Position numbers and translations under genes: made by a program. Shown one piece after another: positions 306-58,396 of a stretch of DNA of 64,000 nucleotides. The stretch's first letter is position 1. Each line of letters starts with the position of its first letter. The notes under the pieces were generated by a model that was not told where the DNA came from, did no database searches, and saw only the letters and a program-made list of their open reading frames with translations. The stretch lies in assembly GCA_043821645.1 (NCBI GenBank), contig JBDRCO010000052.1, forward strand, positions 64,001-128,000. Direction: 5' to 3'. This DNA is from Pseudomonadota bacterium. GTDB lineage: Bacteria > Myxococcota > JACRCW01 > JAFGSX01.

Positions 306-337
306 GCTTGGCTGCAGCGCCTGTCTTTCGGAAGTGC

Positions 338-2629: not shown

Positions 2630-2789
2630 CTCGACATCACCTCGCGAGCGCCGGATGCCCCATTCTCATCGAAGGCGTGTCGCCTGTCACCCGCCCGTCG
2701 AGCGCCGCGCGAAGGTCTTTCTGCGGACCGCAAAAGCAACTATCGTAGGCCGCTGCTGCGACGGGCACAGGGGCGAGGGAGCTTCGAAC

Positions 2790-5753: not shown

Positions 5754-6710
5754 TCAGCGCGTCGCGGCCGCCGCGACCTGGGTCAAAGCCATGTCGAGCT
5801 GTTCATAGCTTTCGAACAGTCGGGCGTCGCTCCCGGAGAGGTCGAACCAGTCGCTCGAGGGAACACCGATCCAGGTCGTCACCTGGCTCGCCATCCGGCG
5901 CAGGCTCTGGCTCAGAGCGAGCCGCTCGTCAGACCCCAGATCTCGTACCACCGACAGCAGCAACAGGTGCGCGTGTGTTGTCTCAACGGCGCGCAGGATC
6001 TCCTCCTCGGGCAGGTTGGGGCCCAGGTAGATGGGCTCGAGCCCGCGACTGGCCGCCAGAATGGCGCCGACCAGCGTACCGAACTCGTGCAGGTGTCCCG
6101 CCGGGGTGGTGACGACGATCTTGGGAGCTCCGGGCTGCGGTGTGCTCCAGTTGAGCACCGAGGTCAGCAGGCCGCGCATCTGCGCCGACACCAGGTGTTC
6201 GTGCGCGATGCTGACCTCGCGTCGGTGCCAGCGCTCCCCCACTTCGAGCAGGATGGGCCGCACCACCTGCAGGGCGAGGTCCTCTGCCCGCAGCAGCATG
6301 GCGGCGCGGCTGAGCAGATCCGCCGCGCGGCGAACATCGAAACGTTCGATGGCCTCGAGATAGTCCGAGCGCACGCGGGCGTAGCTGCGATCGGCATCTG
6401 TGGAACCGTCCGCGGCGGTCCCGCTCTCGTCGTCGAGTTCGGCAAGCAGGGCCTCGAGTCTGGCATTCTCGAGGGCCGCCACGTCCATGATGTGGTGACC
6501 GCGCAAGGTCAGTTCTCGCAGCAAGGAGAGCCGATGGATGTCCAGCGACGAGAACTTTCGCGTGTTGCCGTCGGTGCGGTGGGGCTCCACGGCGGCATAG
6601 CGCTGCTCCCATTTGCGAATTGTGTCCGCGGAGAGCCCGGTGAGTCGGGTCGCGACTCGCATCGAGTAGGTGGCTTGCTCGCCTGCCTTTTCTAGTCTCG
6701 AAGAAGACAT
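5754..6710 (-). CDS. MerR-family regulator with cobalamin-binding domain (CarH/CarA/LitR-like)
   Basis: MerR HTH (TGLSADTIRKWEQRY...RTDGNTRKFS), W-x9-EH motif (WHRREVSIAHEH), HxHEFG B12 ligand motif, YLGPNLP. Confidence 0.85.
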   Translation of the reverse strand: MSSSRLEKAGEQATYSMRVATRLTGLSADTIRKWEQRYAAVEPHRTDGNTRKFSSLDIHRLSLLRELTLRGHHIMDVAALENARLEALLAELDDESGTAADGSTDADRSYARVRSDYLEAIERFDVRRAADLLSRAAMLLRAEDLALQVVRPILLEVGERWHRREVSIAHEHLVSAQMRGLLTSVLNWSTPQPGAPKIVVTTPAGHLHEFGTLVGAILAASRGLEPIYLGPNLPEEEILRAVETTHAHLLLLSVVRDLGSDERLALSQSLRRMASQVTTWIGVPSSDWFDLSGSDARLFESYEQLDMALTQVAAAATR

Positions 6711-7260: not shown

Positions 7261-8472
7261 ATGCAGCGACGACGAATCCAGACCGTGGCCCTGTGGGCGC
7301 TGACTTCACTGTGCTCCAGCCCGGGTCTGGCGGGCCCGCTCGACCCTTCGGGCCAGGTCGGGGAGGTGGCCGCCGACATGGCAGGTGCTGCAAGCCCGGC
7401 AGTCACCGAAGGCGCAGGCACCCAGGAAGAGGAGGTGCTCGATTTCGCAGCCGAGGAGGCCGCAGCGGATCAGAAGACCGCGCAGATCCTGCAGGCGGTC
7501 GCCGGGGCCGCGGGAGCCTTGAGCCAGCGTACGGGTTTCAAGCTCTACGCGGACCTGCTCGTCGACTACGGGGTGGGTCAGGAGTCTTTTGAGTTCAGGC
7601 CCAACCACATCGTGGTCATCTTGCAGATGCAGATCCTGGACAACCTGCTCTTTGCCACCCACATCAGCGATGACCCCGTGTTCTTCGAGCTCAACTGGAT
7701 GATCACACCCCGCCTCACGCTGAAGGCGGGCAAGCTGTTCATCCCCTTCGGCACCAACGAGTTTCACCACATCGTGGGCGGTCGCGTCGACGAGCTGTCG
7801 CAGTTCTTACCCGAGACCTGGAGCGACTACGGTGTGGGCTTGAGCTACCAGCTCCTCGACACGGACTGGTTCAGTGCGGACTACGATCTGTACCTGGTCA
7901 ACGGTTTTCAGGGGGAGGACAGGCCCCTGATCGGTGCGGCGACCACCAGCGACAACAACATGGCCAAGGGCTATGGCGCGCGTCTCAAGCTCACGGTGTT
8001 GAACCGGGTGCTGGTGACCGGGAGCCTGTACCACGACGTGTGGAGCCGTGATCAGCGGAACAACCTGCTGTTCTACTCGGTGGGCCTGGAACTCCGGCCA
8101 GGGCTCATTCCCCTGCCCGTGGTCGACCGCCTGCGTCTTCGCGGAGAGTGGGCGCGGGGCGAGTTCAAGCTGCCCCAGAGAAACTACCAGCAGGGTGTGC
8201 TGCGTCACGCCTACGCCCGCGCCGGTTTCTATGGCGAGGCGCTGCTGCCGCTGTGGGAGTGGGTCGGCGTGCGCTTGCGCGGTGGCCGGATCAATCCAGA
8301 TAACACCGTCACGGACGACGGCGACCTGTGGGTGCTGGAGCCCGCGGTGATCCTGGGCAAGGGCAAGGTCACCGTCCTGCTGGCATATCAGGCCCTGCTC
8401 CAGGACGGGCGGGCCTACTCACCGACGGAGCCAGCGGACATCGTCTACGGAAAGTTCTTCATACAGTTCTGA
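7261..8472 (+). CDS. Outer-membrane beta-barrel (porin-like) protein
   Basis: Signal peptide, acidic N-terminal region, alternating amphipathic strands, KAGKLFIPFG, YLVNG...DNN..KGYGAR, C-terminal aromatic signature YGKFFIQF. Confidence 0.7.
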   Translation: MQRRRIQTVALWALTSLCSSPGLAGPLDPSGQVGEVAADMAGAASPAVTEGAGTQEEEVLDFAAEEAAADQKTAQILQAVAGAAGALSQRTGFKLYADLLVDYGVGQESFEFRPNHIVVILQMQILDNLLFATHISDDPVFFELNWMITPRLTLKAGKLFIPFGTNEFHHIVGGRVDELSQFLPETWSDYGVGLSYQLLDTDWFSADYDLYLVNGFQGEDRPLIGAATTSDNNMAKGYGARLKLTVLNRVLVTGSLYHDVWSRDQRNNLLFYSVGLELRPGLIPLPVVDRLRLRGEWARGEFKLPQRNYQQGVLRHAYARAGFYGEALLPLWEWVGVRLRGGRINPDNTVTDDGDLWVLEPAVILGKGKVTVLLAYQALLQDGRAYSPTEPADIVYGKFFIQF

Positions 8473-8489
8473 TGATCCCGGGGTGTCGC

Positions 8490-9536
8490 ATGCAGAGGTG
8501 GTGGATCCTGGTCGTGCTGTCGACGTGGCTGCTCGCCTGCCCACGCCAGCAGGCCGCTCCCGAGGAGCTGCACGTGGTCACGCGCAGCGAAGAACACATG
8601 TCGACCTACGTGACCATCTCGGTGGCGGCGCCGAGGGGCGCCTCACCCGACGAGGCCATCACCGCCGCCTTTGCCGAGGTGGCGCGGCTGTCGGACACGC
8701 TCAGCGAGTGGCGTGAGCACAGTGAGATCTCCACGGTCAACGCTCAGGCCGGGGGTGCCCCGGTGGTGGTCAGCGCCGAGCTGTACCGGGTCATCCAGGC
8801 CGCGCACGCGGTCTCCGTCGACACCGAGGGCGCCTTCGATATCACCTTCAACGCCCTGTGGGGCCTGTGGGACTTCAAGGCTCCCAACCCCCGGGTGCCC
8901 ACACCCGAGGAGATCGCTCCACGCGTCGCCCTTGTCGACTATCGCCAGGTCACTCTCGACGACACCACCCACAGCGTGCGCCTCGGGAAACCTGGCATGA
9001 AAATGGGGCTCGGCGGCATCGCCAAGGGGTACATCGTGGACCGCGCCAGTGCCCTGCTCAGGGCCCGCGGCTTCACCAACCATCTCGTGAACGCCGGCGG
9101 CGATCTCTACGCCTCGGGGACCCGGGGGGACCGCAAGTGGCGGATCGGCGTCCGGGACCCCGGCACCAAGCAGATCTATGCCACGCTCGAGGTTCAGGAC
9201 CGAGGGCTTGCCACCAGCGGCAACTACGAGCGCTTCTTCATCAAGGACGGCCTGCGCTATCACCACATCCTGGACCCGAAGACGGGCATGCCCACGCGGG
9301 GCATCGCGTCGTCGACGGTGCTGGCGCCGGATGCCATGACCGCGGACGCCTATGCCACCGCGGTGTTCGTCCTGGGTGTTGACCGCTCACTGGCCCTGGC
9401 ACCCCGCAAGGGACTCGAGTTGCTGCTGTTCGACGAGGCCTTCCACACGCGCAGCACACCGGGCATGCCGGCGTTGCTCACTCTCATCGCCGAGGACGCC
9501 GGCTCGCCCGACCAGGACGAGAACAGGGCGCATTAG
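8490..9536 (+). CDS. apbE: FAD:protein FMN transferase (flavin transferase lipoprotein)
   Basis: Lipobox WLLAC; SEISTVN, GAFDIT, GLGGIAKGYIVD, NAGGD, ATSGNYER, YHHILDPKTG, ADAYAT. Confidence 0.93.
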   Translation: MQRWWILVVLSTWLLACPRQQAAPEELHVVTRSEEHMSTYVTISVAAPRGASPDEAITAAFAEVARLSDTLSEWREHSEISTVNAQAGGAPVVVSAELYRVIQAAHAVSVDTEGAFDITFNALWGLWDFKAPNPRVPTPEEIAPRVALVDYRQVTLDDTTHSVRLGKPGMKMGLGGIAKGYIVDRASALLRARGFTNHLVNAGGDLYASGTRGDRKWRIGVRDPGTKQIYATLEVQDRGLATSGNYERFFIKDGLRYHHILDPKTGMPTRGIASSTVLAPDAMTADAYATAVFVLGVDRSLALAPRKGLELLLFDEAFHTRSTPGMPALLTLIAEDAGSPDQDENRAH

Positions 9537-9572
9537 AAAACCCCTCCTCGACAATCCTCTGCGCGGCCCCGG

Positions 9573-11291
9573 GTGAGCTGCGATAAGCTCGTCGTCATGG
9601 CTGCCACCGCTCTCCCGGGCTGCTCGACACCACATGCCGATGAGGAGCGCCAGCGCTCGCCGGGCGCTGCTCCCTGGTGGCTGTGGTTGCTGGGTCTAGG
9701 TCTGGGCGCCGTGCACCTGCTGGCCCACCTCGGAGCGCAGGCCACCGAGGCTCCACCCGCGCTCGTGTATGTGGGCTTCGTGCACATGGTGCCGGATCAC
9801 GCCAGCTATCTGGGCTTCGCGGACCAGGCTCGGCGGACCGGGGACCTCGCCCTGCGGGACCCCTTCACCACCTTGCCCCAGCACGGGCGCTTCGTGATGG
9901 CCTTCTTCTGGCTGGTGGGTCTGCTGGCGCGCCTCACCGCTGGCGACGTGCTCCTGGCCTGGTATCTGCTCGTTCCCCTGTGTTCGCTGGCCCTGGTGTG
10001 GGTGCTGTGGTGGCTGACCGGCCTGCTGTTCCAGGATCCTGGCTGGCGGCGCGTGGCTGTTCTTCTGTGCAGTCTCGGCGGGGGGCTGGGCTGGCTGGGC
10101 AAGCTGCTGAGTGCCGGGCTGGCCTCCCGGGAGGTCGTGGCCTTCGAGTGGAACTGGTCGCTGTTCGGCGCGGCCCTGGTTCCCACCTGGACCCTGGCAC
10201 ACGCCCTGCTCGCTGCTGCAGCGGGGTTGGTGCTGCAGGGGTGGACAACGCCTGACGCGGGGCCGTCGACGCGGCGTGCGTTGCTGCGCTGGCTGCGCAT
10301 TCCTGTACTTCTGCTCTGTGCCTTTCTGGTTCACCCCTACACGGGGCTCGCCGGCCTCGCGATCGTGGGGACGCTAGCGCTCACCGGATGCCTGGCCACG
10401 AATCGGCAGCGCTCCTTGCTGCAACAGCTCGAACCCCTGGCTGCCGTGCTCATCGCAGGCGGATTTATCGCGGTGCTGGGGCTGTGGGCCCGCGGTGACG
10501 ACGTGTACCGCGCCACCACGGGGAATCTCTTCACCTGGACGGAACACTACTCCCCGGTCTGGTATCCCCTGATGTACGGGGTGCCGCTGCTGCTGGCGGT
10601 GCTCGGTGGGCACAGCGCGCTTTGGGATCCCACGGCGTGGACGCTTCGCGGTGTACTGGTGTGGTGCCTGGTCGCGATGGCGCTCTCCAACATGTGGTTC
10701 CTTCCCGGGGTGAAGTTCCAGTTTCTCGTATTCCTGCCTCTCGGCCTGCTGGCGACCCAGGGTCTGCGTGTCGTCGTCGGTCGCTGGCCCTGGCTGGCGA
10801 CGGGAGAACGTCGCCACGTGCTGGCTCTTGGTCTGGCGCTCGGCATCGCCGGCGGACCACTCCCCGACGCCCTGCGCGGGATCATTCCGGCGCCGGGCAT
10901 GCGCATCCACGTCAGTCAACCCCAGCTCGATCTCCTCGCAGCCTTGCAGCAGCTGCCCGACGGCGGAGTACTGGCCCCCCCCGCGGCCGCCATCCTGGTG
11001 CCCTGGAAGGCGAGTAAGCCGGTGTTCGACGGACACTGGTTCCTGAGTCCGCATCACGAGCGCAATCTCGACGACCTGCGGCGCTTCTACCAGGCCGACA
11101 CCCCTGTGGCCTGGAAGGTGGAGTTCCTGGCCCGCGCGCACGTGCGCTACCTGCTCGAAGACCCCTGGAGCACTGGTTCCATCCCGTCGCGCATCGGTCC
11201 CTACGCGGTCCGCGAGCATTTTCGCAATGCCTTCGGACGGGTGCTCGAGCTGGTGGTGGATGAAGGTTCGCACGAGGGTGTGCAACCATGA
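9573..11291 (+). CDS. Polytopic membrane protein, probable GT-C glycosyltransferase
   Basis: About 10-12 hydrophobic segments, acidic loop after TM1 (PDHASY...DPFT), HPY motif, soluble C-terminal domain. Start could be 9573 or 9597. Confidence 0.55.
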   Translation: MSCDKLVVMAATALPGCSTPHADEERQRSPGAAPWWLWLLGLGLGAVHLLAHLGAQATEAPPALVYVGFVHMVPDHASYLGFADQARRTGDLALRDPFTTLPQHGRFVMAFFWLVGLLARLTAGDVLLAWYLLVPLCSLALVWVLWWLTGLLFQDPGWRRVAVLLCSLGGGLGWLGKLLSAGLASREVVAFEWNWSLFGAALVPTWTLAHALLAAAAGLVLQGWTTPDAGPSTRRALLRWLRIPVLLLCAFLVHPYTGLAGLAIVGTLALTGCLATNRQRSLLQQLEPLAAVLIAGGFIAVLGLWARGDDVYRATTGNLFTWTEHYSPVWYPLMYGVPLLLAVLGGHSALWDPTAWTLRGVLVWCLVAMALSNMWFLPGVKFQFLVFLPLGLLATQGLRVVVGRWPWLATGERRHVLALGLALGIAGGPLPDALRGIIPAPGMRIHVSQPQLDLLAALQQLPDGGVLAPPAAAILVPWKASKPVFDGHWFLSPHHERNLDDLRRFYQADTPVAWKVEFLARAHVRYLLEDPWSTGSIPSRIGPYAVREHFRNAFGRVLELVVDEGSHEGVQP

Positions 11292-13597
11292 CGTCTTCAG
11301 CAACGCGCCCGGGTGGTGGCTGGATCCGTCGCGCACTCCTCGTTGCGGGGATAGGTCTCGCAACCAGCGCTGGCATGGCCCTCGCGCAGTGGTGGTTCGG
11401 GTGGGCTCGTCAACCGGGTGCGCTGCAGCAGAGCGTCCCTCTCGAGGCTTCGACGCTCCTTGCCCAGCCCCTGGTCCTGCCAGGGTCCGGGCTCGACAGG
11501 CTGGGTCTGGTCGTGAGCAAGCAGGGCGATCCCTGGCCTGCCACCCTGCAGCTCATCCTCCTCGACGGTGATTCCATCCCTCGCGACCAGCGGGAACTCA
11601 CCCGGCGCACCCGTGCCGAGTTCCTGCTGCGCGTCGGCGGCGATGCAGACCGTCGTCCCATCTGGCGGCCCCTGGAGAACGCCCTGAGCACGGACCTCAA
11701 CCAGCACATGCTGCTCCTCGTGGTGCGCAGGGACGCGCGGAGCTCCTCGGTGAGGCTCTGGCTGGGAGATGGCCAGCAGACCACTCCGTCGACGGCAAGC
11801 CTGCTGAGAGCCGGGCCAGGTGGCGAACTGCAAGCGACGGCGCTCGGGTCGGGCCTCGCACTGAGCGCGGGGTCTGTACCTTCGAGGGGACTGCGACAGC
11901 TGGCCTGGCTGGGCCTGTGGGTGTACGGGGCACTGGTGCTGGTGCTGGTGTGGCTGGGCAGGGCGCCGGCTGAAAAGGTGTCAGGGGCGACGGACGTGGC
12001 GTCCCCCGGGGATCGAAGGCTAGAGCGGCTGGCGGATCTGGTGGTGCTGCTTGCCCTGGTACTGGTGGTGGTGGGCACCGCCCGCACCGGTGTGGCCTGG
12101 GACGAGCAGGGGCTGGCAGCCTACGGTGGTTTCCTGGTCGAGTACTACGCGCGCTGGTTCCCCGATGCGGCCATCGTCGACCACTATCCCCTGTTCAACC
12201 TGCACCTGTACGGAGGTGCCTTCGAGCTCCTGCTCGCCGCGCTCGACCCGCAGATGCCCGGGTCGCCCTATGACATCCGTCACCTGCTGACAGGCTTGTG
12301 TGGGGTCGCCGGTCTCCTCGTCACGCGGGGCCTGGCGCGGCGCCTGGGCGGTCCTCGCGTGGCACTCTGGGCCGTGATCCTGCTGGCGATGCTGCCGTCG
12401 TGGAACGGACACTGGCTCAACAACACCAAGGATCTCCCCTTCGCCGTGGGCTGCACCTGGTCGCTGCTGGTGCTGGTCGACCTCGTGCAGAGCCTTCCCG
12501 AGGCGCCACCGCGCAGGGTCCTGCACCTCGGGCTCGCCATGGGCCTCAGCATGGGTGTGCGGGTGGCGGGGCTCATGCTCCCGGGGCTGTTGTTCCTCGT
12601 CATCCTGGGCTGGTGCCTGGTGTCCTGTTGGAAGCGGCGTGAACTGGGGTCGGCCGTCCGCCTGCTCGGTCGCCTTGCGGGGACGACCCTGCTGCCTGCC
12701 ACGCTCCTCGCCTATGCGTTGATGGTGTTTCTCTGGCCGTGGGCGCAGCAGGCAGTGCTGAGTCATCCCCTGCAGGCCCTGTTCACCTTCGGCGGCTTCT
12801 CGGACTACACCGACCGCGTGCTGGTGGCGGGGCAGTCCGTTCTCGCCACCGAGGTTCCTCGCAGCTACCAGTTGCTGTACCTGGTGGCCAAGCTGCCGGA
12901 GCTTCATCTGGCGCTGCTGGTGGCCACACTCCTCGTGGGCGGACTGGTGTTCTGGCGCGATCGAACGACTCTGGACCGTCGACATGGCGCCTGGGCGGTG
13001 GTGGCGGGTCTGGTCGTGCTCCCACTGCTCGCGGCGTGGCTGCTGCGGCCCACCATGTACGATGGCCTCCGGCAGTCGCTGTTCGTGCTTCCGGCCAGTT
13101 GCGTCCTCGCGGCGGGAACCCTGGACGGGCTGCTGGTCAGGCTGTGGAGTCGATCGAGGTCCGCATGCATTGCCCCGGCGCTGCTGCTCCTCGTCGCTGT
13201 CGGAGACCTGGGCCTGGCGACGGCGCGCTTGTTCCCCTACCAGTACATCTATTACAACCACCTCGTGGGCGGTGTGGAGGGTGCGCAGGATCGCTACGAA
13301 CTCGACTACTGGGGCCTGTGCTACCGGGAAGCCGTGCAGGACCTGCAGCAGGTTCTCGAGCAGCGCGCCGTTGCTCTCGACCCGCAGCGACCCGTGCGGG
13401 TGGCCAGCTGTGGTGAACGCAGCTCCTCGGAGGTCTTCTTCCCGACCTCCCTGGCCTGGGTTCGCACTCCGGAGTCTGCGGATTTCGTGCTCACGCACCG
13501 TCGACAGAACTGTCCGTGGCAGGACCTCGGTCACAGCGTTGGCACGGTTCAGCGCATGGGTGTGCGGCTGTGCGACCTGCGCGAGGTGACCCCGTGA
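11288..13597 (+). CDS. ArnT/PMT-like (GT39/GT83) membrane glycosyltransferase with N-terminal soluble domain
   Basis: GVAWDE motif after TM, HLYGGAFE, GHWLNNTKDLP, YDGLRQ, YQYIYYN, ELDYWG. Confidence 0.7.
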   Translation: MTSSATRPGGGWIRRALLVAGIGLATSAGMALAQWWFGWARQPGALQQSVPLEASTLLAQPLVLPGSGLDRLGLVVSKQGDPWPATLQLILLDGDSIPRDQRELTRRTRAEFLLRVGGDADRRPIWRPLENALSTDLNQHMLLLVVRRDARSSSVRLWLGDGQQTTPSTASLLRAGPGGELQATALGSGLALSAGSVPSRGLRQLAWLGLWVYGALVLVLVWLGRAPAEKVSGATDVASPGDRRLERLADLVVLLALVLVVVGTARTGVAWDEQGLAAYGGFLVEYYARWFPDAAIVDHYPLFNLHLYGGAFELLLAALDPQMPGSPYDIRHLLTGLCGVAGLLVTRGLARRLGGPRVALWAVILLAMLPSWNGHWLNNTKDLPFAVGCTWSLLVLVDLVQSLPEAPPRRVLHLGLAMGLSMGVRVAGLMLPGLLFLVILGWCLVSCWKRRELGSAVRLLGRLAGTTLLPATLLAYALMVFLWPWAQQAVLSHPLQALFTFGGFSDYTDRVLVAGQSVLATEVPRSYQLLYLVAKLPELHLALLVATLLVGGLVFWRDRTTLDRRHGAWAVVAGLVVLPLLAAWLLRPTMYDGLRQSLFVLPASCVLAAGTLDGLLVRLWSRSRSACIAPALLLLVAVGDLGLATARLFPYQYIYYNHLVGGVEGAQDRYELDYWGLCYREAVQDLQQVLEQRAVALDPQRPVRVASCGERSSSEVFFPTSLAWVRTPESADFVLTHRRQNCPWQDLGHSVGTVQRMGVRLCDLREVTP

Positions 13598-15396
13598 GCG
13601 TGGCGAACTCCGTCCTGCGGCCGAGCTGGAGCGCGCGCCTCCTGTGGTGGCTCATCCCCCTCGTCGTGGCGCTGTGGGCTGGCTGGGATCTGCTGGCACC
13701 CTGGGACGTCAACGGGCACAGCGTCTACCTCAACCACATCCGTCTGGTGGCTCTCGAGGCGACCCTGCGCGAGGGCGGTCTCTCCCTGCGCTGGCTGCCC
13801 CAGCTGTACTTCGGCCACGGCTCGCCGCTGTTCAACTACGTCGCGCCCTTGCCGACCCTGCTGGCCCTGGTCCTCGTGTGGATGGGCCTCAGCGCCAGCA
13901 TGGCCATCAAGCTCGTCTACCTCGGGGCCTTGCTCGGAGCGGCCCTCTCCACGGCCTGGCTGGCCCGCATCCTTGCTGGACCCTGGGCGGGCCTCGGTGC
14001 GGGCGTTCTCGTCGTGCTGGCTCCCTACGCGCTGGTCAACGTGTATGTCCGCGCGCAATTTGGCGAGCCCGTGGCTCTGGCACTGGCCCCACTGGCTCTC
14101 GTCGCCGTGCATCGTCTCGACGGCCCCAGACCCTGGCGCAGCGTCGCCCTGGGGGCGTGCGCGGTCGGCCTGCTCGTGCTCAGTCACAACATCGCCGCCC
14201 TCATGCTCTTCGCACTGGTTGCGGCCGCGGTGGCCGCCAAGATCTGGGCACATCCTCGTCGTGAACTCGTGCTGCGGGGGGCCGTTTTCCTGGGCCTCGG
14301 GCTCGGGCTCTCGGCCTGGCTGTGGCTTCCGGCCCTGGCGGAGACCTCGGCGGTGCAGGCCCGGGCCGCTCTCACCTCGGGACCCTTTGCCTATGACCTC
14401 CACTTCGTCACCTTCGGCCAGCTGCTCGGCGACAGCTGGGGTTACGGTGTCAGCGGACCCGGGGATCAGGACTCCATGCCCTTGCAAGCCGGGCGTGCGC
14501 TGCTCCTGCTGTGGGCTGCGGGCGCCCTGCTGACCGCGCGACGCTGGCGAGAGACGCCGGCGCTGGCACGCGTGATGGTGCTGGCGGCGCCCGTGGCGCT
14601 GTTCCTGACCACGGCGGCCTCGGCACCGTTGTGGCGCCATGTCCCCTTGCTGCCCTTCATGCAGTTTCCGTGGCGGTTTCTCCTGCTGTTCTGTCTGGCC
14701 GCGGCGGTCACCGCCGGTCTGGCGCTCGGGGATCTGGCCGGGCGTCTGCATCCCCCCTGGCGCGAGATCGTGCTTGGCCTCACGGTAGTTCTGATCGTCG
14801 TCATGAGTCAGCACCAGGTCAACGCGATGTACCTTCGCTTCAACCTGGCCACCCATGAGTCCGCCATCTTCGTCAAAAACAATGGTCCCAGCATCGACCA
14901 GGACCCAAACCTCGTTCCCATCGGCGAGGTGTACACCGCTTCGAACATCGTGCGGCTCGGAGTCTCGGCCACCATCGGTGACGACTACTTGCCGCGCGCC
15001 GTCGAGGACAAGCCCAGGGCACCTTCGTCGCAACCTGTCGAGGTGATCGCGGGTGCCTTGCAGGTCATTTCGGGGAATTCGGCGCCCCAGCGACACAGCG
15101 CGGTGCTGCGTGTCGACCAGGATGCGCGCCTGCGCTTTCCGCTGTTTTACTTCCCGGGCTGGATCGCACGTCTCGACGGCACCGAGATTCCCGTCGAGGT
15201 CGAGCCGCGCTCCGGGTGCATCGTGATCGACGTTCCCCGAGGTGAGCACGAGCTGGTGCTGCAGTTTGCGAGCACACCGCTGCGCTCGGTCTCGACGCTG
15301 CTGTCGCTGCTAGCTGGGATGGCGGTGCTGGTGCTGCTGCTGGGCTCCTGGTGGGCATGCAGGCGTCGAGCGATCACTCCCGCACCGGTGGCGTGA
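13594..15396 (+). CDS. GT-C membrane protein, 6-pyruvoyl-tetrahydropterin-synthase-related/YfhO-like family
   Basis: RWLPQLYFGHGSPLFNYVAPL, APYALVNVYVRAQFGE, LSHN, MQFPWRFL, FYFPGW..RLDG, VPRGEHELVLQF. GTGA overlap with upstream gene. Confidence 0.75.
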   Translation: MSVANSVLRPSWSARLLWWLIPLVVALWAGWDLLAPWDVNGHSVYLNHIRLVALEATLREGGLSLRWLPQLYFGHGSPLFNYVAPLPTLLALVLVWMGLSASMAIKLVYLGALLGAALSTAWLARILAGPWAGLGAGVLVVLAPYALVNVYVRAQFGEPVALALAPLALVAVHRLDGPRPWRSVALGACAVGLLVLSHNIAALMLFALVAAAVAAKIWAHPRRELVLRGAVFLGLGLGLSAWLWLPALAETSAVQARAALTSGPFAYDLHFVTFGQLLGDSWGYGVSGPGDQDSMPLQAGRALLLLWAAGALLTARRWRETPALARVMVLAAPVALFLTTAASAPLWRHVPLLPFMQFPWRFLLLFCLAAAVTAGLALGDLAGRLHPPWREIVLGLTVVLIVVMSQHQVNAMYLRFNLATHESAIFVKNNGPSIDQDPNLVPIGEVYTASNIVRLGVSATIGDDYLPRAVEDKPRAPSSQPVEVIAGALQVISGNSAPQRHSAVLRVDQDARLRFPLFYFPGWIARLDGTEIPVEVEPRSGCIVIDVPRGEHELVLQFASTPLRSVSTLLSLLAGMAVLVLLLGSWWACRRRAITPAPVA

Positions 15397-16945
15397 AGCT
15401 GGGCGTTGGCCGCTCGCGCAGCACCGTGGGCTGGCCCCGGCCATGAGCAAATGTCTTGAGCGCCGGCTCGCCGTACACGATCTTGCGGCAGGCGTTCTCG
15501 CACAGGCCACACCCCATGCAGCGCACGTAGTCCACGGCGGCAGGCCGGAGCGGGCGATCCGGGCGTGCAGCCTCGATGACGAAGGCCTTGGTCGGGCAGA
15601 TCTCGATGCACTTGCGGCAGGCCAGGTTGTCCGTGTACGAGATGCAGCGATCCTTCTCGAGAACGGCCGTGCCCATCTTGACCGACCACTTGTCGGTCTC
15701 GCGCTTGTCGAAGCGCGGGATGGCATCGCTGGGGCAGACTTCGCCGCAGGCATTGCAGTCCGCCCGGCATCCCCCCACCTCGGGTGTGATGGCAGGGGTC
15801 CACAGACCGGCCAGGCCAGCCTCCAGATGCGTGAGCTGCAGGGTCTGGGTCGGGCAGGCCTGCACACACATGCCACAGCGCACGCACTGGTCCAGGAAGG
15901 TGTCCTCGTCGAGCACGCGCGGTGGTCGCACCAGGGTGTTGGGATCCCCACGGTGGTAAGCCGCGAACGCGGTCAAGGGAGCCAGCGCCACGCCCGTGGC
16001 TCCGGCCACCAGAAAGGAGCGGCGGCCAAGCTCGAGCGGGCGGTCGACCTTGTGGCGCCCTGGACTCATCCAGTCGAAGCGGATGGCCTGCACGTGACAG
16101 AAGTCGCGGCCGCTCATGCAGCGGATGCACTCGTGGTTGAGTGTGAATTGGGGGTTCGAGGGCACCGCACCCATGCGGCATTCGCGAATGCATTGCTTGC
16201 CCGCGGCAAGCGCGTGGCATCCGTCGCAGCCCTTGACGCGCCGACGGAGCAAGGGGACGCGCGCGAGCAGGCCGTAGAAGGCCCCCAGCGGACACAGGTA
16301 GCGACAGTAGAAGCGGGGGCTGAGCGCGGTCAGGCCGAGCACGGTGAGCAGCAAGGCCAGGGGCAGGAAGGCGATGCCGTGGTACGGCGTGTGCCAGGTC
16401 CCGGGCAGCGCGTCGTCGGGCAGCACGGCAGTGAACGCTGGCCACAAGCCCCCTGCGGTGGCGCGAAAGAGCAGCACCAGCGGATCCAGCAGGTAGATCC
16501 ACTGCGACGACAGCAGGGCGCCGATCACCACGACCGTGAGCAGCACATACTTCCAGTGCTGCATGCGCTGGTGCTGGGCGAGGCTGAAGCGGGACTCGGG
16601 GGGGCGCAGGACCCTGGCCATGCCGTCGAGCAGGGTTCCCAGCGGACACAGCCAGCCGCAAAAAGCGCGACCCACGACCAGGGTCATGACGACGAGGACC
16701 AGCGAGCCCAGCAAGGTCGGGACCCACACCAGGGCCGAACCCATGGTGAGCAACGCGACCAGCGGATCGCTGATCAGAAACAGGTCTGTGCGCAGCGGCG
16801 AGGCGACGGGATCCCGCACCCAGAGGAACAGTGCGATCCACAGCAGCAGACTCAGCACTTGCGACAGGCGGCGCACCTGGCGCCATCCGGATCGGGTGGT
16901 CACCGTCGGCGGCGGATGGGGGCGGGCCTGGGCAGCAGCGGCCAT
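15374..16945 (-). CDS. Membrane polyferredoxin (NapH/MauN-like plus NapG/MauM-like domains) with internal Tat motif
   Basis: Two CxxxCP motifs (GRAFCGWLCP, RFYCRYLCP), several CxxCxxCxxxC(P) motifs, about 5 TM segments, GRRSFL before the last TM. Confidence 0.85.
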   Translation of the reverse strand: MAAAAQARPHPPPTVTTRSGWRQVRRLSQVLSLLLWIALFLWVRDPVASPLRTDLFLISDPLVALLTMGSALVWVPTLLGSLVLVVMTLVVGRAFCGWLCPLGTLLDGMARVLRPPESRFSLAQHQRMQHWKYVLLTVVVIGALLSSQWIYLLDPLVLLFRATAGGLWPAFTAVLPDDALPGTWHTPYHGIAFLPLALLLTVLGLTALSPRFYCRYLCPLGAFYGLLARVPLLRRRVKGCDGCHALAAGKQCIRECRMGAVPSNPQFTLNHECIRCMSGRDFCHVQAIRFDWMSPGRHKVDRPLELGRRSFLVAGATGVALAPLTAFAAYHRGDPNTLVRPPRVLDEDTFLDQCVRCGMCVQACPTQTLQLTHLEAGLAGLWTPAITPEVGGCRADCNACGEVCPSDAIPRFDKRETDKWSVKMGTAVLEKDRCISYTDNLACRKCIEICPTKAFVIEAARPDRPLRPAAVDYVRCMGCGLCENACRKIVYGEPALKTFAHGRGQPTVLRERPTPSFTPPVRE

Positions 16946-17632
16946 CTACTTGCCGCCGGCCTTGGCTGCCTTTTCCTCGTCGGTGAGCAGTTCTCCACTC
17001 TCGATGGCCTTCTGGATCTGGGCCTGCACGGCAGCCCTGGCCTTCCGCACATCCTCGGACACGGCCACGGGTGCACCGCCGCCAAAGAACAGGTTATGCA
17101 GTGAGACGGCCTTGCGGGTGGCTGTGGCCGTGGCTTCCGCCGAGTAGGTGGCGCCGGTGACACTGTCGACGTCGGCCTTGACGGTCAGCGGGTCCTGGTG
17201 CGTCTTCTTCCGGAACTGCTTGAGAAAGCCCTTCTTGTTGATGGGGAAGGATCGCGGGCACGACAGCTCGACGATCACCGTCTCCTGAACCACGCCCGCC
17301 GCATCCATGCCGATGGCGTACTTGTGAAAGCACGTTCCGAACACCTCGGGTACCACGAAGACGTAGGCCAGATCCTCACCGCCCGAGCTGCGTCCGACGT
17401 AGAACACGTAGCTCGGTTCCTCGGCCTTCCAGCCATAGTCCTCGAGCAGGCGTTGCCGCTGTGCCGCGCTGGGCGTCTTGGTGACCTTGACGATCTTGGA
17501 ACCCTTGGGTGTGAAGGTCTTGACGGCTTGTTCCAGTGACATGTACTTGACCGCGGCTGCCGTCGACGACAGATGCACGCCAACCAGGGCCGTGACAGCG
17601 CACAGCGCTCCGCGAAGAACGTTCGAATTCAT
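16946..17632 (-). CDS. Exported FMN-binding (flavinylated) protein, RnfG/NqrC-like FMN_bind domain
   Basis: Signal peptide; FLKQF.KK...DPL...DVDSVTGATYS carries the [S/T]GA[S/T] flavinylation motif. Confidence 0.85.
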   Translation of the reverse strand: MNSNVLRGALCAVTALVGVHLSSTAAAVKYMSLEQAVKTFTPKGSKIVKVTKTPSAAQRQRLLEDYGWKAEEPSYVFYVGRSSGGEDLAYVFVVPEVFGTCFHKYAIGMDAAGVVQETVIVELSCPRSFPINKKGFLKQFRKKTHQDPLTVKADVDSVTGATYSAEATATATRKAVSLHNLFFGGGAPVAVSEDVRKARAAVQAQIQKAIESGELLTDEEKAAKAGGK

Positions 17633-18018
17633 CTCTTCTCCTCGACCTTGCCTCGCCAGCGCACCTGGCCGGCGATGAGCACGAGACCGAGCGCGGGTAG
17701 CACCAGCAGCCAGGGCCTGGTCACGTTCTCGGGAAATCCCGCGTTCGGTCCAGCCTCCACCGGGGCCGGGTCATCGGCAAAGACGACTTCTTCCTCGCTG
17801 TCCTTGCCCGGGACCGGGTCCGCCTGACCTTGCGCCGTGCCCTCGTCGTCGAACACCGCTTCTTCTTCGACGGTCTCCTCGACGGCCTGTGCGGGAGAGG
17901 CTCCCCCCGTCGTCGCCGGCTCGGCGTCCTGGCTCCAGGCAGGTGCAGCCAGCAGGATGGCGCACAGCACGAGCCCATCGGCGGTGTAAAGGGTGGTCTG
18001 ATGACGACGAGAATTCAT
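17629..18018 (-). CDS. Small acidic exported protein with C-terminal membrane anchor
   Basis: Signal peptide (AWS-QD), Glu/Asp-rich linker, C-terminal TM with basic tail; overlaps the start of the FMN-binding gene by 4 nt. Confidence 0.6.
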   Translation of the reverse strand: MNSRRHQTTLYTADGLVLCAILLAAPAWSQDAEPATTGGASPAQAVEETVEEEAVFDDEGTAQGQADPVPGKDSEEEVVFADDPAPVEAGPNAGFPENVTRPWLLVLPALGLVLIAGQVRWRGKVEEKR

Positions 18019-18127
18019 GTTCCCACGCTACCCGCGCCTCGGTGTCCCGTCAATGTGAACACAGACCCGCTCGAACACGGGATGACACAAGTCAGACCCT
18101 GGCCGTGCCCCGGATCCCGGGAGCCCG

Positions 18128-20419
18128 CTACGGCGCCTTTACCCAGCGGAAGGTGATGCCGCCGGGGTCCAGGTAGCGCAGCTGGGAGGCGCCTCGCTCG
18201 ACGTCGGGAGCGGATTCCTCTGTGGCCTGGCCGAGAGTCACATTGAAGCCAGTGCTGCCGAGGCCCAGACGCTTGACGATGCGGTGCTGGCCGCGCGCAC
18301 TGAAGCTGGTGTCGCCCCAGCAGGTCTCGGTATCGGCCGAGGCCACCCACCCGGGGTCCCTATCCAGGCTCAGCAGGATGTGCACCAGGTATTCACCCTG
18401 GGGTATGCGCTGCAGGTTGCGATCCAGGGGCAACCACTCCAGAACCTTGAGCCCGGGCAAGGTGGTGGCCTCGGTGACACCGTCGATGAGGTCCAGGTCC
18501 TCGTTGCTGATGCGAACGCGTCCTGTGCCGTCGACCAGATCCCCGCCCTGGCTGCCACTCTGGTCATTGCGGCGGTCCGCGTTGCGGCCCAGGCCCACGC
18601 TCTCGAACACGCCACCTGTGACGAGGGCAGCGAGGTAGTCTGGAGCCCGGTAGTCCAGGTCCCAGAAGGGGTTCTGGTGACCTTGCTTCTGGCCCACGTA
18701 GTGCACCAGCGTGGCCACGTAGTCGATGCCCCTGCGTTCCTTGCTCGCTGCGTCAAAGGAGCAGCTCTCACCCGGCTGCAGCGGCCCCTCGATCCAGGCA
18801 TCCACCGCATACCTGTTGGCGCCGGTGTCGAAGCTGCTGGCCACGGGCTGTGCGGTGCTCAGATCGCGCAGATTGAACGACACGAGCAACTTGAAGCCCG
18901 CCGGCACAGGACCCTGGTAGGTCTGGGTGTAGTCCACCAGCACACGCAGGGGCTCGCTCAGGTTGCCCAGGGCATCGCGACAGCGCAGCTCCAGGTCGTT
19001 GACGCCGGGGATGAGATCCGCGTTGTAGACCCAGCTCGTGTCAGGACCGCGGGGCACCACCACCAGACCGTTGAGCAGCACCGAGGTGCTGGGGTCCCGC
19101 GTGCCCTCGAGCACCACCAGGGCTTCGTTCACGGTTGCCGGCGGGGCTGGGAACAGCGTCGGCGGTGCGGGTTGCACAGCGTCGCGCTGCACCATCAAGG
19201 TCACCGGTGCACTCGAGAAACCGTTGCGCCCGCGTGCCACGATCTCCAGATCGTTGACGCCGAGGTTGAGTGTCCAGCTCGCGTGCCAGGTGGTGCTACC
19301 GTCGATGGCAACGACCTCATTGCCGTTGATCCACACCGAGGATGGCGCGGGTTTGGTGCCGGACAGTGCCAGTTCGGTGGCGCGCGTTCGATGGCTCGAG
19401 GGGTCCACCTCGGCAGGGAGCTCCACTGTCGGGGGGAGTGGAGTGTTTCCATCCTCACCCGGGCCCGTGTCAAAGCTCCACACCCAGTCCGCCGGGGCTG
19501 GCACTGTCTGGTTCCCGGCGCTGTCCGCAAAGCGCCCGGCGTCGAGGGTCGCGGTGTAGCGCGTCCCGGGCTGCAGCGGCACCGCCAGGGACAGGGTGTG
19601 GCTGAGAGCCTGGTAGGTCAGCACGCCGCCAGGGCGCGTGCCGGCCGTATCGCGCACTACGAGAATGTCGGGATCGAGGCTATCGAACGAGAGCGCCAGG
19701 GCGTCATCGAGAGCAACCTGGATCAAAGCGTTGGTCGGCACGTCGACCTCGCCCACGGCGGGATAGCGCGAGACAAGCTGCGCAGGCACGCGATCCAGCT
19801 CCACCTCGAAGTCCACGGGCTCGCTCGACCGCCCGCGGGTGTCGCGCGCCACCAGCGAGAAGTGAAACAGACCATCGACGGCGCCCAGATCGAGCTGCGC
19901 GGTCCAGTCTGTGGATTCCCCTGCCTGCACAAACTCGGAAGAACTCAGCACGGCCCCCGTGCCATCGACGCGGCTCAGCCACAGTGCGGACCCAGTAGGT
20001 CGCGCGCCCTGCAAGTTCTGCAAGGGCTCCCGGGTGGGTGAGAGGACAGGCTGCAGCGTCGGCGCAGCCGGGAAATTAGGTTCGTAAAAAATCAGCCCCG
20101 GTGTGTGCTCGACGCTGGCGAGTCCGCTCTTGCGCTGAGAGGTCAGGTCGAGAGCGTTGTCGCCGGGTTGCAGCGCCACCTCCGCACTCCAGCCCTCCTG
20201 GGCGTCGTGGGCAACCAGGACCTCGCCGTGATTGAGCACGGCCGTGCCCGCGGGCTTGGTACCCTCGACGCGCTGCCGGGCGCGGCGCGTGGGAGACTCC
20301 ACCGGGAACAGACCAGGGGGGTCGGGCGGGACCTCGACGTCGCCCAGGCAGGCCGAGCCCAGGCCAAGCACCAGTGGCAGAGCCAGGATGCGGTAACGAG
20401 CAGAGAAAAAGACTGTCAT
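18128..20419 (-). CDS. Lipoprotein with Ig-like repeats and a C-terminal DUF2271-like domain
   Basis: Lipobox LGSAC; four PPxL.P...GT(K/R) Ig-like repeats plus a Big_5-like domain; C-terminal YAVDAWIE...YVATL...IDGVTEAT..PG...LEW...D.N...PQGEY. Confidence 0.65.
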   Translation of the reverse strand: MTVFFSARYRILALPLVLGLGSACLGDVEVPPDPPGLFPVESPTRRARQRVEGTKPAGTAVLNHGEVLVAHDAQEGWSAEVALQPGDNALDLTSQRKSGLASVEHTPGLIFYEPNFPAAPTLQPVLSPTREPLQNLQGARPTGSALWLSRVDGTGAVLSSSEFVQAGESTDWTAQLDLGAVDGLFHFSLVARDTRGRSSEPVDFEVELDRVPAQLVSRYPAVGEVDVPTNALIQVALDDALALSFDSLDPDILVVRDTAGTRPGGVLTYQALSHTLSLAVPLQPGTRYTATLDAGRFADSAGNQTVPAPADWVWSFDTGPGEDGNTPLPPTVELPAEVDPSSHRTRATELALSGTKPAPSSVWINGNEVVAIDGSTTWHASWTLNLGVNDLEIVARGRNGFSSAPVTLMVQRDAVQPAPPTLFPAPPATVNEALVVLEGTRDPSTSVLLNGLVVVPRGPDTSWVYNADLIPGVNDLELRCRDALGNLSEPLRVLVDYTQTYQGPVPAGFKLLVSFNLRDLSTAQPVASSFDTGANRYAVDAWIEGPLQPGESCSFDAASKERRGIDYVATLVHYVGQKQGHQNPFWDLDYRAPDYLAALVTGGVFESVGLGRNADRRNDQSGSQGGDLVDGTGRVRISNEDLDLIDGVTEATTLPGLKVLEWLPLDRNLQRIPQGEYLVHILLSLDRDPGWVASADTETCWGDTSFSARGQHRIVKRLGLGSTGFNVTLGQATEESAPDVERGASQLRYLDPGGITFRWVKAP

Positions 20420-20544
20420 GCAGACCTCGGCATGCGGTTCACCATCCTGGTTAGCAAGAACCGGAGGTGCTGTCAGCGCCCGTGGAAGCCACGGCCTTGA
20501 GCGAGGGCCTCGGCTACGTTAGGGTCCTGACGACGAGGTGGGGA

Positions 20545-21462
20545 GTGACCATCCATCGCCAGCGCTGTGTTGTCGTCGGAGCAGGGCCAGCGGGCCTGTC
20601 CGCGGCCCTGTGGATGGACAAACTTGGTGTGCCCTTCGTGCTCCTCGAGGCGGGTGCGCAGCTCGGCGGGGAGCTTGCGCGTATCCACCTCCCGATCCGC
20701 GATCTTCTCGGCGTGCAGGTTGGTGATGGTCGCGATTTCCTGCGCCGGGTGCAGGAACAGCTCGCAGGAAAGCGCTGGGACCTCCGCTTTGGAACGGCGG
20801 CGCGCCGCGTCGATATCCGGAACCATCGACTGGAGACCAGTACGGGATGCTTCGAGGCCGAGGCCATCCTGCTGACCATGGGTCTCCGCCGCCGCCGTCT
20901 GTCGATTCCCGGCGCAGAGGCCTTTCTGGGTCGCGGCCTTTCCTATTCCGCGACCACGGATCTCGAGGCCTTGACGGGCCAGCCTACCGTTGTGCTCGGT
21001 GGTGGCGACGGCGCCTTCGAGAATGCACTGATCCTCGCAGATCACTGTCCGCGGGTCTGGATCGCGCACCGGGGTCCGCAGGCCACCGCCAGGCTCGAGT
21101 TCGCCCGGCGTGCCAGCGCGCACCCACACATCACCATTGTGCCCGACGCCGAGCTGTCACGGCTGCTGCCCGGGCCTGGCTCGCTGTCCGGCGTTGAGCT
21201 GGCCACGCCGAGTGGTGTGACGGTCATCGACGCCAGCTGGGTGGTGGTCAAGATTGGCTTCGATCCCCGCACCGAGGCCCTCGTTGACGACGATCTGCAG
21301 CGCGATGCACACGGATATATCGTCGTGGATCGCAGGTTGCGCACGTCGGCCGACGGCGTCTTCGCCGCCGGGGACCTGTGCAACCCCCACGCGCCCAGCC
21401 TGGCCGCAGCCATCGGTGATGGTGCGGTGGCAGCAGCGTCCATTCATCGCTATCTGAGCTAG
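20545..21462 (+). CDS. Thioredoxin-reductase-fold NAD(P)/FAD oxidoreductase lacking the CxxC
   Basis: VVGAGPAGLSAA, GRGLSYSATTD, LGGGDGAFENA, TSADGVFAAGD. Start chosen at GTG 20545 (ORF track gives 20467). Confidence 0.85.
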   Translation: MTIHRQRCVVVGAGPAGLSAALWMDKLGVPFVLLEAGAQLGGELARIHLPIRDLLGVQVGDGRDFLRRVQEQLAGKRWDLRFGTAARRVDIRNHRLETSTGCFEAEAILLTMGLRRRRLSIPGAEAFLGRGLSYSATTDLEALTGQPTVVLGGGDGAFENALILADHCPRVWIAHRGPQATARLEFARRASAHPHITIVPDAELSRLLPGPGSLSGVELATPSGVTVIDASWVVVKIGFDPRTEALVDDDLQRDAHGYIVVDRRLRTSADGVFAAGDLCNPHAPSLAAAIGDGAVAAASIHRYLS

Positions 21463-21534
21463 TCAGTTTCCCGCACCGATCGTAGAAGACGGAGCGGCCA
21501 AGCGCAGGAACGTCGAGGCGGATTCGGAGGCGGC

Positions 21535-22551: not shown

Positions 22552-22553
22552 AA

Positions 22554-58395: not shown

Positions 58396-58396
58396 T

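Follow-up and report, generated by a model that had tools for sequence, protein, structure and literature searches.

A conserved heme-free gene module of Myxococcota with a probable role in extracytoplasmic electron transfer through iron–sulfur clusters and ApbE-attached flavins

Do the genes at positions 7261..20419 of the Myxococcota DNA analysed here (the window, a stretch of 64,000 nucleotides) belong to a single system, and if so, what does that system do? An earlier note on this 13.2 kb interval had described six genes, encoding a beta-barrel or porin-like protein, the flavin-attaching enzyme ApbE, a lipoprotein, an acidic anchored protein, a flavin mononucleotide (FMN)-binding protein (here the FMN protein) and a membrane polyferredoxin, and had read them as a heme-free chain leading from the inner membrane through periplasmic FMN carriers toward the outer membrane or the cell surface, for metal reduction or uptake or for redox repair. 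All six were confirmed as real open reading frames (ORFs) at the places described, and each is supported by third-codon-position G+C, which was used for choosing real frames because the window, with a G+C content of 62–69%, contains many open ones. The porin and apbE genes lie on the plus strand, and the other four are transcribed from the minus strand in the order lipoprotein, acidic protein, FMN protein, polyferredoxin. The two sets are on opposite strands, as the earlier note had it when it described them as converging; however, porin-apbE does not abut the minus-strand operon because three plus-strand genes for GT-C-like membrane proteins (9573–15396), which had been overlooked, intervene. 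Our answer, held with moderate confidence, is that these genes would represent a conserved heme-free module of Myxococcota for extracytoplasmic electron transfer by way of iron–sulfur clusters and flavins attached by ApbE. The earlier observation was thus partly confirmed, and its interpretation is partly supported.

The FMN protein has 95 homolog clusters, and to compare the genomic context among relatives an alignment of 26 of them served as the query for a scan of one genome per species. Nine loci were returned (L001–L009), all from Myxococcota or from metagenome-assembled genomes labelled ‘Deltaproteobacteria’, and these were mapped by tblastn with 16 window proteins together with a reading of short ORFs. 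The polyferredoxin gene follows the FMN gene in seven of the nine loci, and the remaining two contigs (L004 and L008) stop right after the FMN gene. A gene for the acidic protein is located directly upstream of the FMN gene in eight loci and was not seen in L004. These three genes are the core of the module, and in the window they are tightly packed, with the acidic and FMN genes overlapping by 4 nt, and the FMN stop codon abutting the polyferredoxin start with a 0-nt gap, an arrangement of translational coupling.

Orthologs of the porin were found at five of the nine loci, and orthologs of ApbE and of the lipoprotein at four each; porin, ApbE, lipoprotein, FMN protein and polyferredoxin occur together at four loci, in three of them on one strand. 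The latter three (L002, L003 and L005) share the order porin–ApbE–lipoprotein–(a paralog of ~950 amino acids)–acidic protein–FMN protein–polyferredoxin. L006 has the convergent layout of the window with nothing between the two sets, the three GT-C-like genes being absent, while in L007 the order is acidic protein–FMN protein–polyferredoxin–porin. The porin, ApbE and lipoprotein are therefore not part of the core, but are its recurrent partners in the subclade of the window. Cluster contig sizes were compared by eye: the longest contig of porin cluster P0170 is the same size (102,818) as the contig of L001, and, with this pair counted, equal-sized longest contigs were noted for eight FMN–porin and three FMN–lipoprotein cluster pairs, which suggests, without proving it, that the clusters share contigs. 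The earlier note had made its reading depend on whether these genes occur together in relatives, and the comparison of loci revealed a conserved unit whose linkage is not due to chance. In L003 only, a gene for a TonB-dependent-receptor Plug domain is present upstream (1–1686, minus strand), and a gene combining ScdA_N with hemerythrin, of the iron–sulfur repair type, is present downstream (12771–14114, plus strand).

The identity of the proteins was established with varying ease. Four Pfam families had been proposed as checks, and ApbE and Fer4_5 were indeed found above their cut-offs, whereas FMN_bind (21.6 bits against 22) and DUF2271 (22–24 bits against 27.3) fell below theirs. The FMN_bind score, just short of its cut-off, is that of the FMN protein (16946–17632, minus strand; 228 amino acids); most of its 95 homolog clusters carry a precomputed PF04205 assignment. 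A search of the Protein Data Bank (PDB) with the single sequence returned nothing useful, but the family profile had RnfG as its sole match there (E = 0.0025). An AlphaFold model (predicted local distance difference test score, pLDDT, 87) was compared with the PDB using Foldseek, and the top 18 matches were all RnfG or NqrC, with a probability of at least 0.95 and E-values from 1e-3 to 3e-2, at modest query-normalised TM-scores of 0.36–0.47. The flavinylation motif DSVTGAT occupies residues 156–162 (17147–17167, minus strand), and both A161 and the acceptor T162 are invariant in 26/26 aligned homologs. An RnfG/NqrC-like fold and an invariant acceptor threonine thus bear out the earlier description of this product as an FMN-binding protein. 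Unlike RnfG and NqrC, the protein has an AxA signal-peptidase site, as read from the sequence, before VKYMSL, and because of this site it should be soluble in the periplasm. It is basic, with a net charge of +6.

Some orthologs of the FMN protein have Glu in place of the motif Gly (DGVTEAT, DGVAEAT and DGVVEAT). This variant, at times with Ala or Val for the first Thr, is seen in one subclade comprising the L006 protein (9110–9832) and clusters P0073–P0091, and the cognate ApbE of that subclade may have a relaxed or shifted motif preference. The family also carries a nearly invariant pair of cysteines and a histidine within residues 100–127 (TCFHK ... ELSCPR), absent from the 31%-identical outlier P0095. 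The strand register of the model places the two cysteines on neighbouring antiparallel strands, a feature not typical of RnfG/NqrC, and the pair could form a disulfide, a redox-active dithiol or a metal site. In four ORFs (P0008, P0056, P0062 and P0094), a single frame without a stop covers both the acidic and the FMN protein, and the latter's own signal peptide becomes another membrane segment; either the two proteins are truly fused there or the gene calls have read through.

The polyferredoxin (15374–16945, minus strand; 523 amino acids) had been described as NapH/NapG-like, and it is a fusion of the two. Fer4_5 (PF12801) was matched over two stretches at 71.5 bits against a cut-off of 22 (E = 5.5e-20), and the NCBIfam models place NapH at residues 20–167 and NapG at residues 307–496. 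Hydropathy analysis gave transmembrane (TM) helices at 27–45, 73–91, 134–152, 190–208 and 311–329, plus an extra hydrophobic segment at 55–73. Two CX3CP motifs are located after TM2 and TM4, seven cysteines at 240–283 are cytoplasmic by predicted topology, and the C-terminal domain contains four groups of four cysteines at 354–486. An internal twin-arginine motif (G-R-R-S-F-L, residues 307–312, with the arginines at 308–309) runs into TM5, the two elements together spanning 15959–16024 on the minus strand. All 27 cysteines as well as R308, R309 and F311 are invariant in 7/7 orthologs. A PDB search with the family profile returned generic ferredoxin domains only. The layout matches that of the dual Sec/Tat polytopic polyferredoxin of the delta proteobacterium MLMS-1, described as a NapH–NapG fusion (Tooke et al. 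2017, PMC5449189), and because of this match the four-cluster domain should be periplasmic. In both proteins the twin-arginine motif immediately precedes the last of five TM helices, cysteines on the cytoplasmic side follow TM4, and a four-cluster domain forms the C terminus; note that the MLMS-1 protein (Q1NSB0) is likened here by its described layout rather than by sequence, and that the study, in the sections drawn on here, concerns membrane insertion only, without FMN or partner proteins (PMC5449189).

The single CxxCH among the six proteins is found at residues 240–244 of the polyferredoxin. Heme binding at this site (CDGCH) was considered and rejected, as the histidine is not conserved in the orthologs. 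With no conserved CxxCH heme motif in any of the six proteins, the heme-free character proposed earlier stands.

The lipoprotein (18128–20419, minus strand; 763 amino acids) is built of a lipobox (..GSAC), a conserved linker (CLGDVEVPP), about five immunoglobulin (Ig)-like beta-sandwich domains and a C-terminal domain of ~270 amino acids (18128–18934, minus strand). Pfam detected Big_5 (E = 1e-11), and the structural model (pLDDT 83) contains about five beta-sandwich domains within residues 45–500 followed by a mixed C-terminal domain. Foldseek with the whole model returned only S-layer, cadherin and titin-like strings of Ig domains, and nothing specific to the C-terminal domain. Of the earlier description as an Ig/DUF2271-like lipoprotein, both the Ig domains and the relation of the C-terminal domain to DUF2271 were upheld. 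A conserved Thr stands at the motif position, but the motif itself reads T-E-A-T and is non-canonical. It lies within DGVTEAT (18464–18484, minus strand; candidate acceptor T652), and D646, G647, A651 and T652 are invariant in 14/14 aligned sequences, the alignment comprising 14 of the 15 homolog clusters (P0110, a protein of 556 amino acids covering 20% of the query, was left out). Both proposed flavin sites of the module, T162 and T652, thus hold up as conserved candidates.

A search of 1.84 billion representatives with a profile of the C-terminal domain retrieved 46 proteins, making this a rare family, and did not reach the small canonical DUF2271 proteins; for this reason the link to DUF2271 rests on sub-threshold Pfam scores, one ortholog above the threshold, structural similarity and the position of the motif. 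The Pfam model (PF10029) scored 22.2 bits on the whole protein and 24.1 bits on the C-terminal domain, ortholog P0099, with 29.3 bits, passed the cut-off, and a precomputed PF10029 assignment exists for five orthologs. A structure search of the Atlas with the C-terminal domain gave a DUF2271 cluster as the best match (TM-score 0.58 by target length and 0.38 by query length) and an ApbE–DUF2271 fusion cluster as the third; the best score in the corresponding feature search (0.76) was too low for use, and the profile found no useful match in the PDB. The motif maps to positions ~65–71 of the DUF2271 profile, with Asp at ~65 in every case, and at the same profile position the distant relatives P0134, P0138 and P0149 carry the canonical DG[VI]SGAT. 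A D-x-x-[STAVC]-x-A-[ST] heptad is present in 31 of the 46 proteins, and the terminal Thr is kept in 11/11 aligned members, even in those with Pro, Thr or Val for the motif Ala. Further invariant residues of the domain are DRR 615–617, H712, R713, W542, E544, Y567 and the pair C553/C700.

The residue at position +2 of the mature lipoprotein is Leu, within a conserved C-L-G/D-D linker. By the rules of lipoprotein sorting in Myxococcus, a +2 Leu argues against retention in the inner membrane.

Two groups of relatives of the lipoprotein deserve separate mention. Between their lipoprotein and acidic genes, L002 (6437–9439), L003 (6762–9602) and L005 (4992–7754) have a second, longer paralog of ~920–1000 amino acids that the window lacks; it has two Big_5 domains, a C-terminal domain related to that of the window protein and a Cys-rich tail, and lacks D-G-x-T-x-A-T. 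Distant relatives of the C-terminal domain, of ~400 amino acids (P0134 and P0136–P0139), carry sorting domains of type IX secretion (Por_Secre_tail, CHU_C), which implies that they are candidate cell-surface flavoproteins in another phylum.

In two distant relatives, a small lipoprotein with c-type heme motifs stands where the flavin lipoprotein would be, upstream of the three core genes. The L007 protein (9156–9629; 157 amino acids) contains three CxxCH and one Cx4CH, and the L009 protein (9139–9612) contains a single CxxCH, with a weak match to Cytochrome_C7 (E = 0.005). This swap fits a role of the lipoprotein as an electron carrier and is the strongest indirect support for it. An interchange of flavins and cytochromes has been noted in a survey of flavinylated systems (Meheust et al. 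2021, PMC8238504).

The identity of ApbE (8490–9536, plus strand; 348 amino acids) is secure, with PF02424 matched at 295.4 bits against a cut-off of 25.6 (E = 5.4e-88); the NCBIfam ApbE model scored 145.6 bits, under its equivalog cut-off of 498. A lipoprotein-type signal (..WLLAC) was read from the sequence.

The porin-like protein (7261–8472, plus strand; 403 amino acids) gave no Pfam match up to E = 10. When 28 members of its family were compared with Pfam, no porin or outer-membrane-protein model was matched, and the four hits obtained, to three unrelated families, were at chance level (E ≥ 0.0027); a PDB search with the family profile found no sequence relative. The product is nevertheless likely, though not proven, to be an outer-membrane porin-like barrel, an assignment made because of its signal peptide, its terminal aromatic residue (..KFFIQF) and its language-model features. 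The C terminus is F or Y in 32 of 34 homologous clusters, and in the Atlas the features score 0.97–0.98 to porin clusters, 18–35% of whose members carry Porin_O_P or Porin_4, with anion- and siderophore-type porin clusters among the neighbours. A flavinylated porin of the DUF3570 type (~420 amino acids) was rejected as a candidate, as there is neither a Pfam match nor a [S/T]GA[S/T] or D..[ST].A[ST] motif.

The acidic protein (17629–18018, minus strand; 129 amino acids, no Pfam match) is tail-anchored and consists of a signal-like N-terminal segment, a predicted periplasmic region that is strongly acidic (net charge −18 over residues 30–98), a C-terminal TM helix and a basic tail. Within the acidic region there are two copies of a short motif, EEAVFDD (17845–17865) and EEEVVFAD (17773–17796), both on the minus strand. 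The counterparts at the other loci differ in length, and the signal-like start is missing from some of them, but all carry one or two copies of the motif, for example EEVVDLDTL, EEVDLDAL or EEEVVFADD, followed by a helix that ends in WNV.W in the closer relatives. The porin carries the same kind of motif (EEExVDF in the porin, EEVVDLD in the acidic protein) within a disordered, acidic and Ala-rich N-terminal extension. In the window porin it reads EEEVLDF (7426–7446, plus strand), and E65 is invariant among 28 aligned family members, with E57, E58, D61 and F62 nearly so. A post hoc regular expression matched eight of nine acidic proteins (the window and eight loci), all six porins of the window and loci, and 25 of the 34 porin-family clusters, five of the nine misses being N-terminally truncated fragments. 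Elsewhere in the 40,766 residues of the locus proteins it matched only three other sites, and composition-matched shuffles yielded the motif in 0.05–1.4% of cases. A complex prediction of the mature FMN protein (residues 28–228) with the acidic region (residues 30–98) scored 0.31, 0.31 and 0.25 where 0.32 is the mark; each of three controls scored 0.00, and the result was not used as evidence for or against docking.

One interpretation of these data is the following chain, in which we infer flavin attachment, the sequence of carriers, their contacts, the membrane that holds the lipoprotein, the direction of flow and the nature of the final acceptor. The NapH-like membrane half of the polyferredoxin would exchange electrons with the quinone pool or with a cytoplasmic donor, and the NapG-like half, carrying four [4Fe-4S] clusters and placed in the periplasm by the internal twin-arginine signal and TM5, would pass them to the secreted RnfG-like flavoprotein with FMN on T162. 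From there, electrons may reach a second FMN on T652 of the DUF2271-like domain, held at the tip of a ~20-nm Ig-like rod on the lipoprotein, which would cooperate with the dedicated porin-like protein of the outer membrane. ApbE, itself probably a periplasmic lipoprotein, would install both flavins. The acidic motif could provide two docking sites, one on the acidic tether of the inner membrane and one on the extension of the outer-membrane porin, and the docked basic partner would most likely be the FMN protein, given its net charge of +6. The parts point to an order of inner membrane, periplasm and then outer membrane. A bolder version is rather unlikely as it stands: that this would be the first heme-free flavin/iron–sulfur conduit across a diderm periplasm, with a flavoprotein shuttling between two acidic docking stations (the tether beside a Tat-inserted polyferredoxin, and the periplasmic extension of a barrel) and handing over to a flavin at the tip of a 20-nm rod, a role filled by a small multiheme cytochrome in distant relatives, with this flavin attached at a Glu-for-Gly ApbE motif.

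How does such a module compare with known systems? The combination of genes had not been recognised when the locus was first described, and in part it is in fact familiar. Systems with a NapH-like protein, a separate FMN-binding protein and ApbE account for 539 of 2465 catalogued clusters, most without a known function (Meheust et al. 2021, PMC8238504). As in the ‘NapH-like’ systems defined there, the locus has a membrane Fer4_5 (PF12801) protein with several TM helices, a separate secreted FMN-binding protein and ApbE in one cluster (PMC8238504). The FMN protein is adjacent to the polyferredoxin (the rule in that survey is ApbE, or an FMN-binding, DUF2271 or DUF3570 gene with a signal peptide, no more than five genes away; signal peptides were read here from the sequences), and ApbE lies four genes beyond the 3′ end of the polyferredoxin gene in the window and three to five genes off in L002, L003, L005 and L006. 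We therefore classify the locus, by its gene and domain content, as an apparently uncharacterised subtype of these systems. It differs from them in that the NapH-like part is fused to a predicted periplasmic NapG-like tetra-cluster domain, and in the addition of a porin, an acidic tether and a lipoprotein whose Ig rod bears another candidate target, the DUF2271-like domain. Searches of open-access papers and preprints brought up no description of three features: a NapH-like core paired with such a lipoprotein, the dedicated barrel, and the tether with the motif that it has in common with the porin.

The usual partner of DUF2271 is reported to be a PepSY-like protein rather than a NapH-like one (PMC8238504). 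The lipoprotein resembles the beta-sandwich domain that ApbE flavinylates at [S/T]GA[S/T] in the DUF2271/PepSY-like/ApbE clusters, with which its C-terminal domain agrees in fold, profile and motif position; however, the domain is twice as long, sits on five Ig-like domains with a lipid anchor, carries T-E-A-T, and has a NapH-like membrane partner in place of a PepSY-like cytochrome. The polyferredoxin and the FMN protein recall NosR and PceC (RdhC), in which a flavinylated periplasmic FMN_bind domain and a NapH-like membrane protein feed a periplasmic partner. In those proteins the FMN domain is fused at the N terminus and the C-terminal ferredoxin is cytoplasmic, whereas the present FMN protein is secreted as a product of its own gene and the additional ferredoxin domain is predicted to be periplasmic. 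Identity with NosR was rejected, the NCBIfam NosR model scoring 45 bits against a cut-off of 1000 and the FMN domain being a separate gene.

In the flavin-based extracellular electron transfer (EET) of Listeria (FmnB/PplA/EetAB/Ndh2), an enzyme of the ApbE type attaches flavin to a surface lipoprotein, which delivers electrons to the outside without heme, as is proposed here; that system serves a Gram-positive envelope without an outer membrane, depends on Ndh2, demethylmenaquinone (DMK) and EetA/B, and its PplA has FMN_bind rather than DUF2271-like domains. A further likeness, of a hypothetical kind, is to the logic of MtrCAB-type systems, which combine a quinol dehydrogenase in the inner membrane with carriers in the periplasm and, in the outer membrane, a barrel that has a lipoprotein as its redox partner. 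A porin–cytochrome conduit proper was rejected, as the six proteins include no multiheme cytochrome, their sole CxxCH is not conserved, and the barrel is small (~310 residues).

Several points weigh against the proposed export chain. The ApbE, porin and lipoprotein genes adjoin the core in only four to five of the nine loci, and in L001 and L004 the core stands without any of them within 10 kb, with unrelated genes (for a periplasmic-binding-domain protein and a helicase) upstream. The porin call is based on sequence features and language-model similarity rather than on a fold or family match, and the regular expression for the acidic motif was composed after the sequences had been seen. The window lipoprotein and most of its relatives fall below the Pfam cut-off for DUF2271, and among members of the C-terminal domain family the motif Ala is in some cases replaced by Pro, Thr or Val, and the Asp in one. 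The motif of the lipoprotein has Glu where the canonical [S/T]GA[S/T] has Gly, and we know of no prior assay of Glu at this position of the ApbE motif. Other substitutions are tolerated to a degree, with G→A and A→V each leaving ~50% flavinylation and D→A having minor effects, according to a review (PMC12052999). Each step of electron flow is deduced from sequence, and the roles in metal reduction or uptake or in redox repair that had been suggested earlier are conjectural. The window's locus encodes no terminal reductase, metal transporter or cytochrome, and a barrel of ~310 residues is unlikely to pass an Ig domain, so that no way through the outer membrane is apparent.

The last point is also the opening for a different view, in which no electrons are exported. 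The C-terminal domain of the lipoprotein is twice the size of DUF2271 (~270 against 135 amino acids) and has many invariant polar and aromatic residues, and it might catalyse a reaction instead of relaying electrons, as a periplasmic terminal oxidoreductase, a flavoenzyme for a small solute that enters via the porin. The polyferredoxin and FMN protein would then be the link between this enzyme and the quinone pool, in the manner of NosR with NosZ and of PceC with reductive dehalogenases, and the locus would be an ordinary NapH-like respiratory or detoxifying module. NapH-like systems are indeed described as being used in a modular way with periplasmic reductases and oxidases such as NosZ, PceA, NirS and ExaA (PMC8238504), and the anion- and siderophore-type clusters among the feature neighbours of the porin would suit the entry of a solute. 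However, no known catalytic domain was detected in the lipoprotein with Pfam, NCBIfam or a PDB profile, a periplasmic enzyme has no need of a five-domain rod, some distant relatives of the domain are type IX secretion cargo and hence surface proteins, and the finding that L007 and L009 have a small multiheme or monoheme lipoprotein instead fits a carrier better. We regard a terminal enzyme as a serious alternative, albeit an unlikely one.

A second alternative is reductive iron assimilation, the flavinylated DUF2271-like domain reducing ferric chelates that enter through the porin. DUF2271 clusters have been tied to iron reduction and uptake (PMC8238504), the Atlas neighbours of the porin include one siderophore-porin cluster, and L003 has the TonB-dependent-receptor Plug and ScdA/hemerythrin genes at its flanks. 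Those L003 neighbours are, however, not conserved in the other loci, a polyferredoxin with six clusters seems heavy for the task, and the neighbours scanned in the window and the related loci include no iron transporter or reductase gene, with no PepSY-like, DUF4198, FTR1/P19, VIT1 or Feo gene among them; this explanation appears improbable. That the genes are chance neighbours with no common function, ApbE acting instead on targets encoded at other sites of the genome, for example Rnf or Nqr, is hardly credible: the two sets of the window do stand on opposite strands with 5.8 kb of unrelated genes between them, and the cores of L001 and L004 do lack the partner genes, but three loci have all genes co-directional and a fourth has them adjacent and convergent, the porin and the acidic protein of the core have a specific motif in common, and both candidate targets keep the acceptor Thr.

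The proposed electron-transfer module does not extend to the other genes of the region. The three GT-C-like genes (9573–15396) make up 5.8 kb of the 13.2 kb interval (44%), and each product has 12–15 hydrophobic segments. The first (9573–11291, plus strand; 572 amino acids) has many TM helices and no Pfam match, the second (11288–13597, plus strand; 769 amino acids) matches PMT_2 (E = 1.6e-6), and the third (13516–15396, plus strand; 626 amino acids) matches PTPS_related (E = 2e-6) and YfhO (E = 2e-5). PDB sequence searches with the three proteins returned nothing useful. Because they are absent from all nine relatives, these genes look like a local insertion outside the conserved module. A gene for a GT2 polyprenyl-phosphate-sugar synthase-like protein (2313–3497, plus strand), with NCBIfam matches of the AglJ, PpgS and ArnC type, lies 4 kb upstream and is likewise not present in the nine related loci; taken together, these four genes look like a lipid-linked glycosylation pathway inserted beside the module.

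A regulator with a MerR and a B12-binding domain (CarH/LitR architecture; 5754–6710, minus strand; NCBIfam CarH 116 bits against 400) is divergent from porin-apbE, and hints at light/B12 control in the organism of the window; it is not conserved in the related loci. Three further genes (20467–23288, plus strand), divergent from the lipoprotein operon and also not conserved in the nine loci, encode a thioredoxin-reductase-like flavoprotein without any CxxC, which is possibly of the ferredoxin/flavodoxin–NADP reductase type, a protein with a fragmentary amine-oxidase/CrtI-like match, and GTP cyclohydrolase II (RibA), with which riboflavin synthesis starts; a cytoplasmic electron donor and a flavin supply are possible roles. 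The GT-C-like genes, the CarH-like regulator, the thioredoxin-reductase-like protein and RibA were each considered as parts of the module and rejected, since tblastn found no match for any of them in the nine loci. Farther away (49769–60577, plus strand), genes for a 1955-amino acid protein with nine thrombospondin type 3 repeats, a receptor with CarboxypepD_reg, Plug and beta-barrel domains, ExbB and ExbD form what by its domain content is a separate outer-membrane uptake cluster.

Most NapH-like flavinylation systems are without a known function (PMC8238504), and the six-gene version described here makes the question testable. The exchange of a flavin lipoprotein for small cytochromes in L007 and L009 illustrates, within one type of locus, the flavin/cytochrome interchange proposed in that survey (PMC8238504). 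Acceptance of T-E-A-T by ApbE would serve flavin-tagging technology, and the docking of a flavoprotein on acidic peptides would be a possible general way of organising periplasmic electron carriers. If the export chain proposed here is true, diderm bacteria build a trans-periplasmic conduit without hemes, which would widen the search for EET in soils and groundwater, the source of these Myxococcota genomes.

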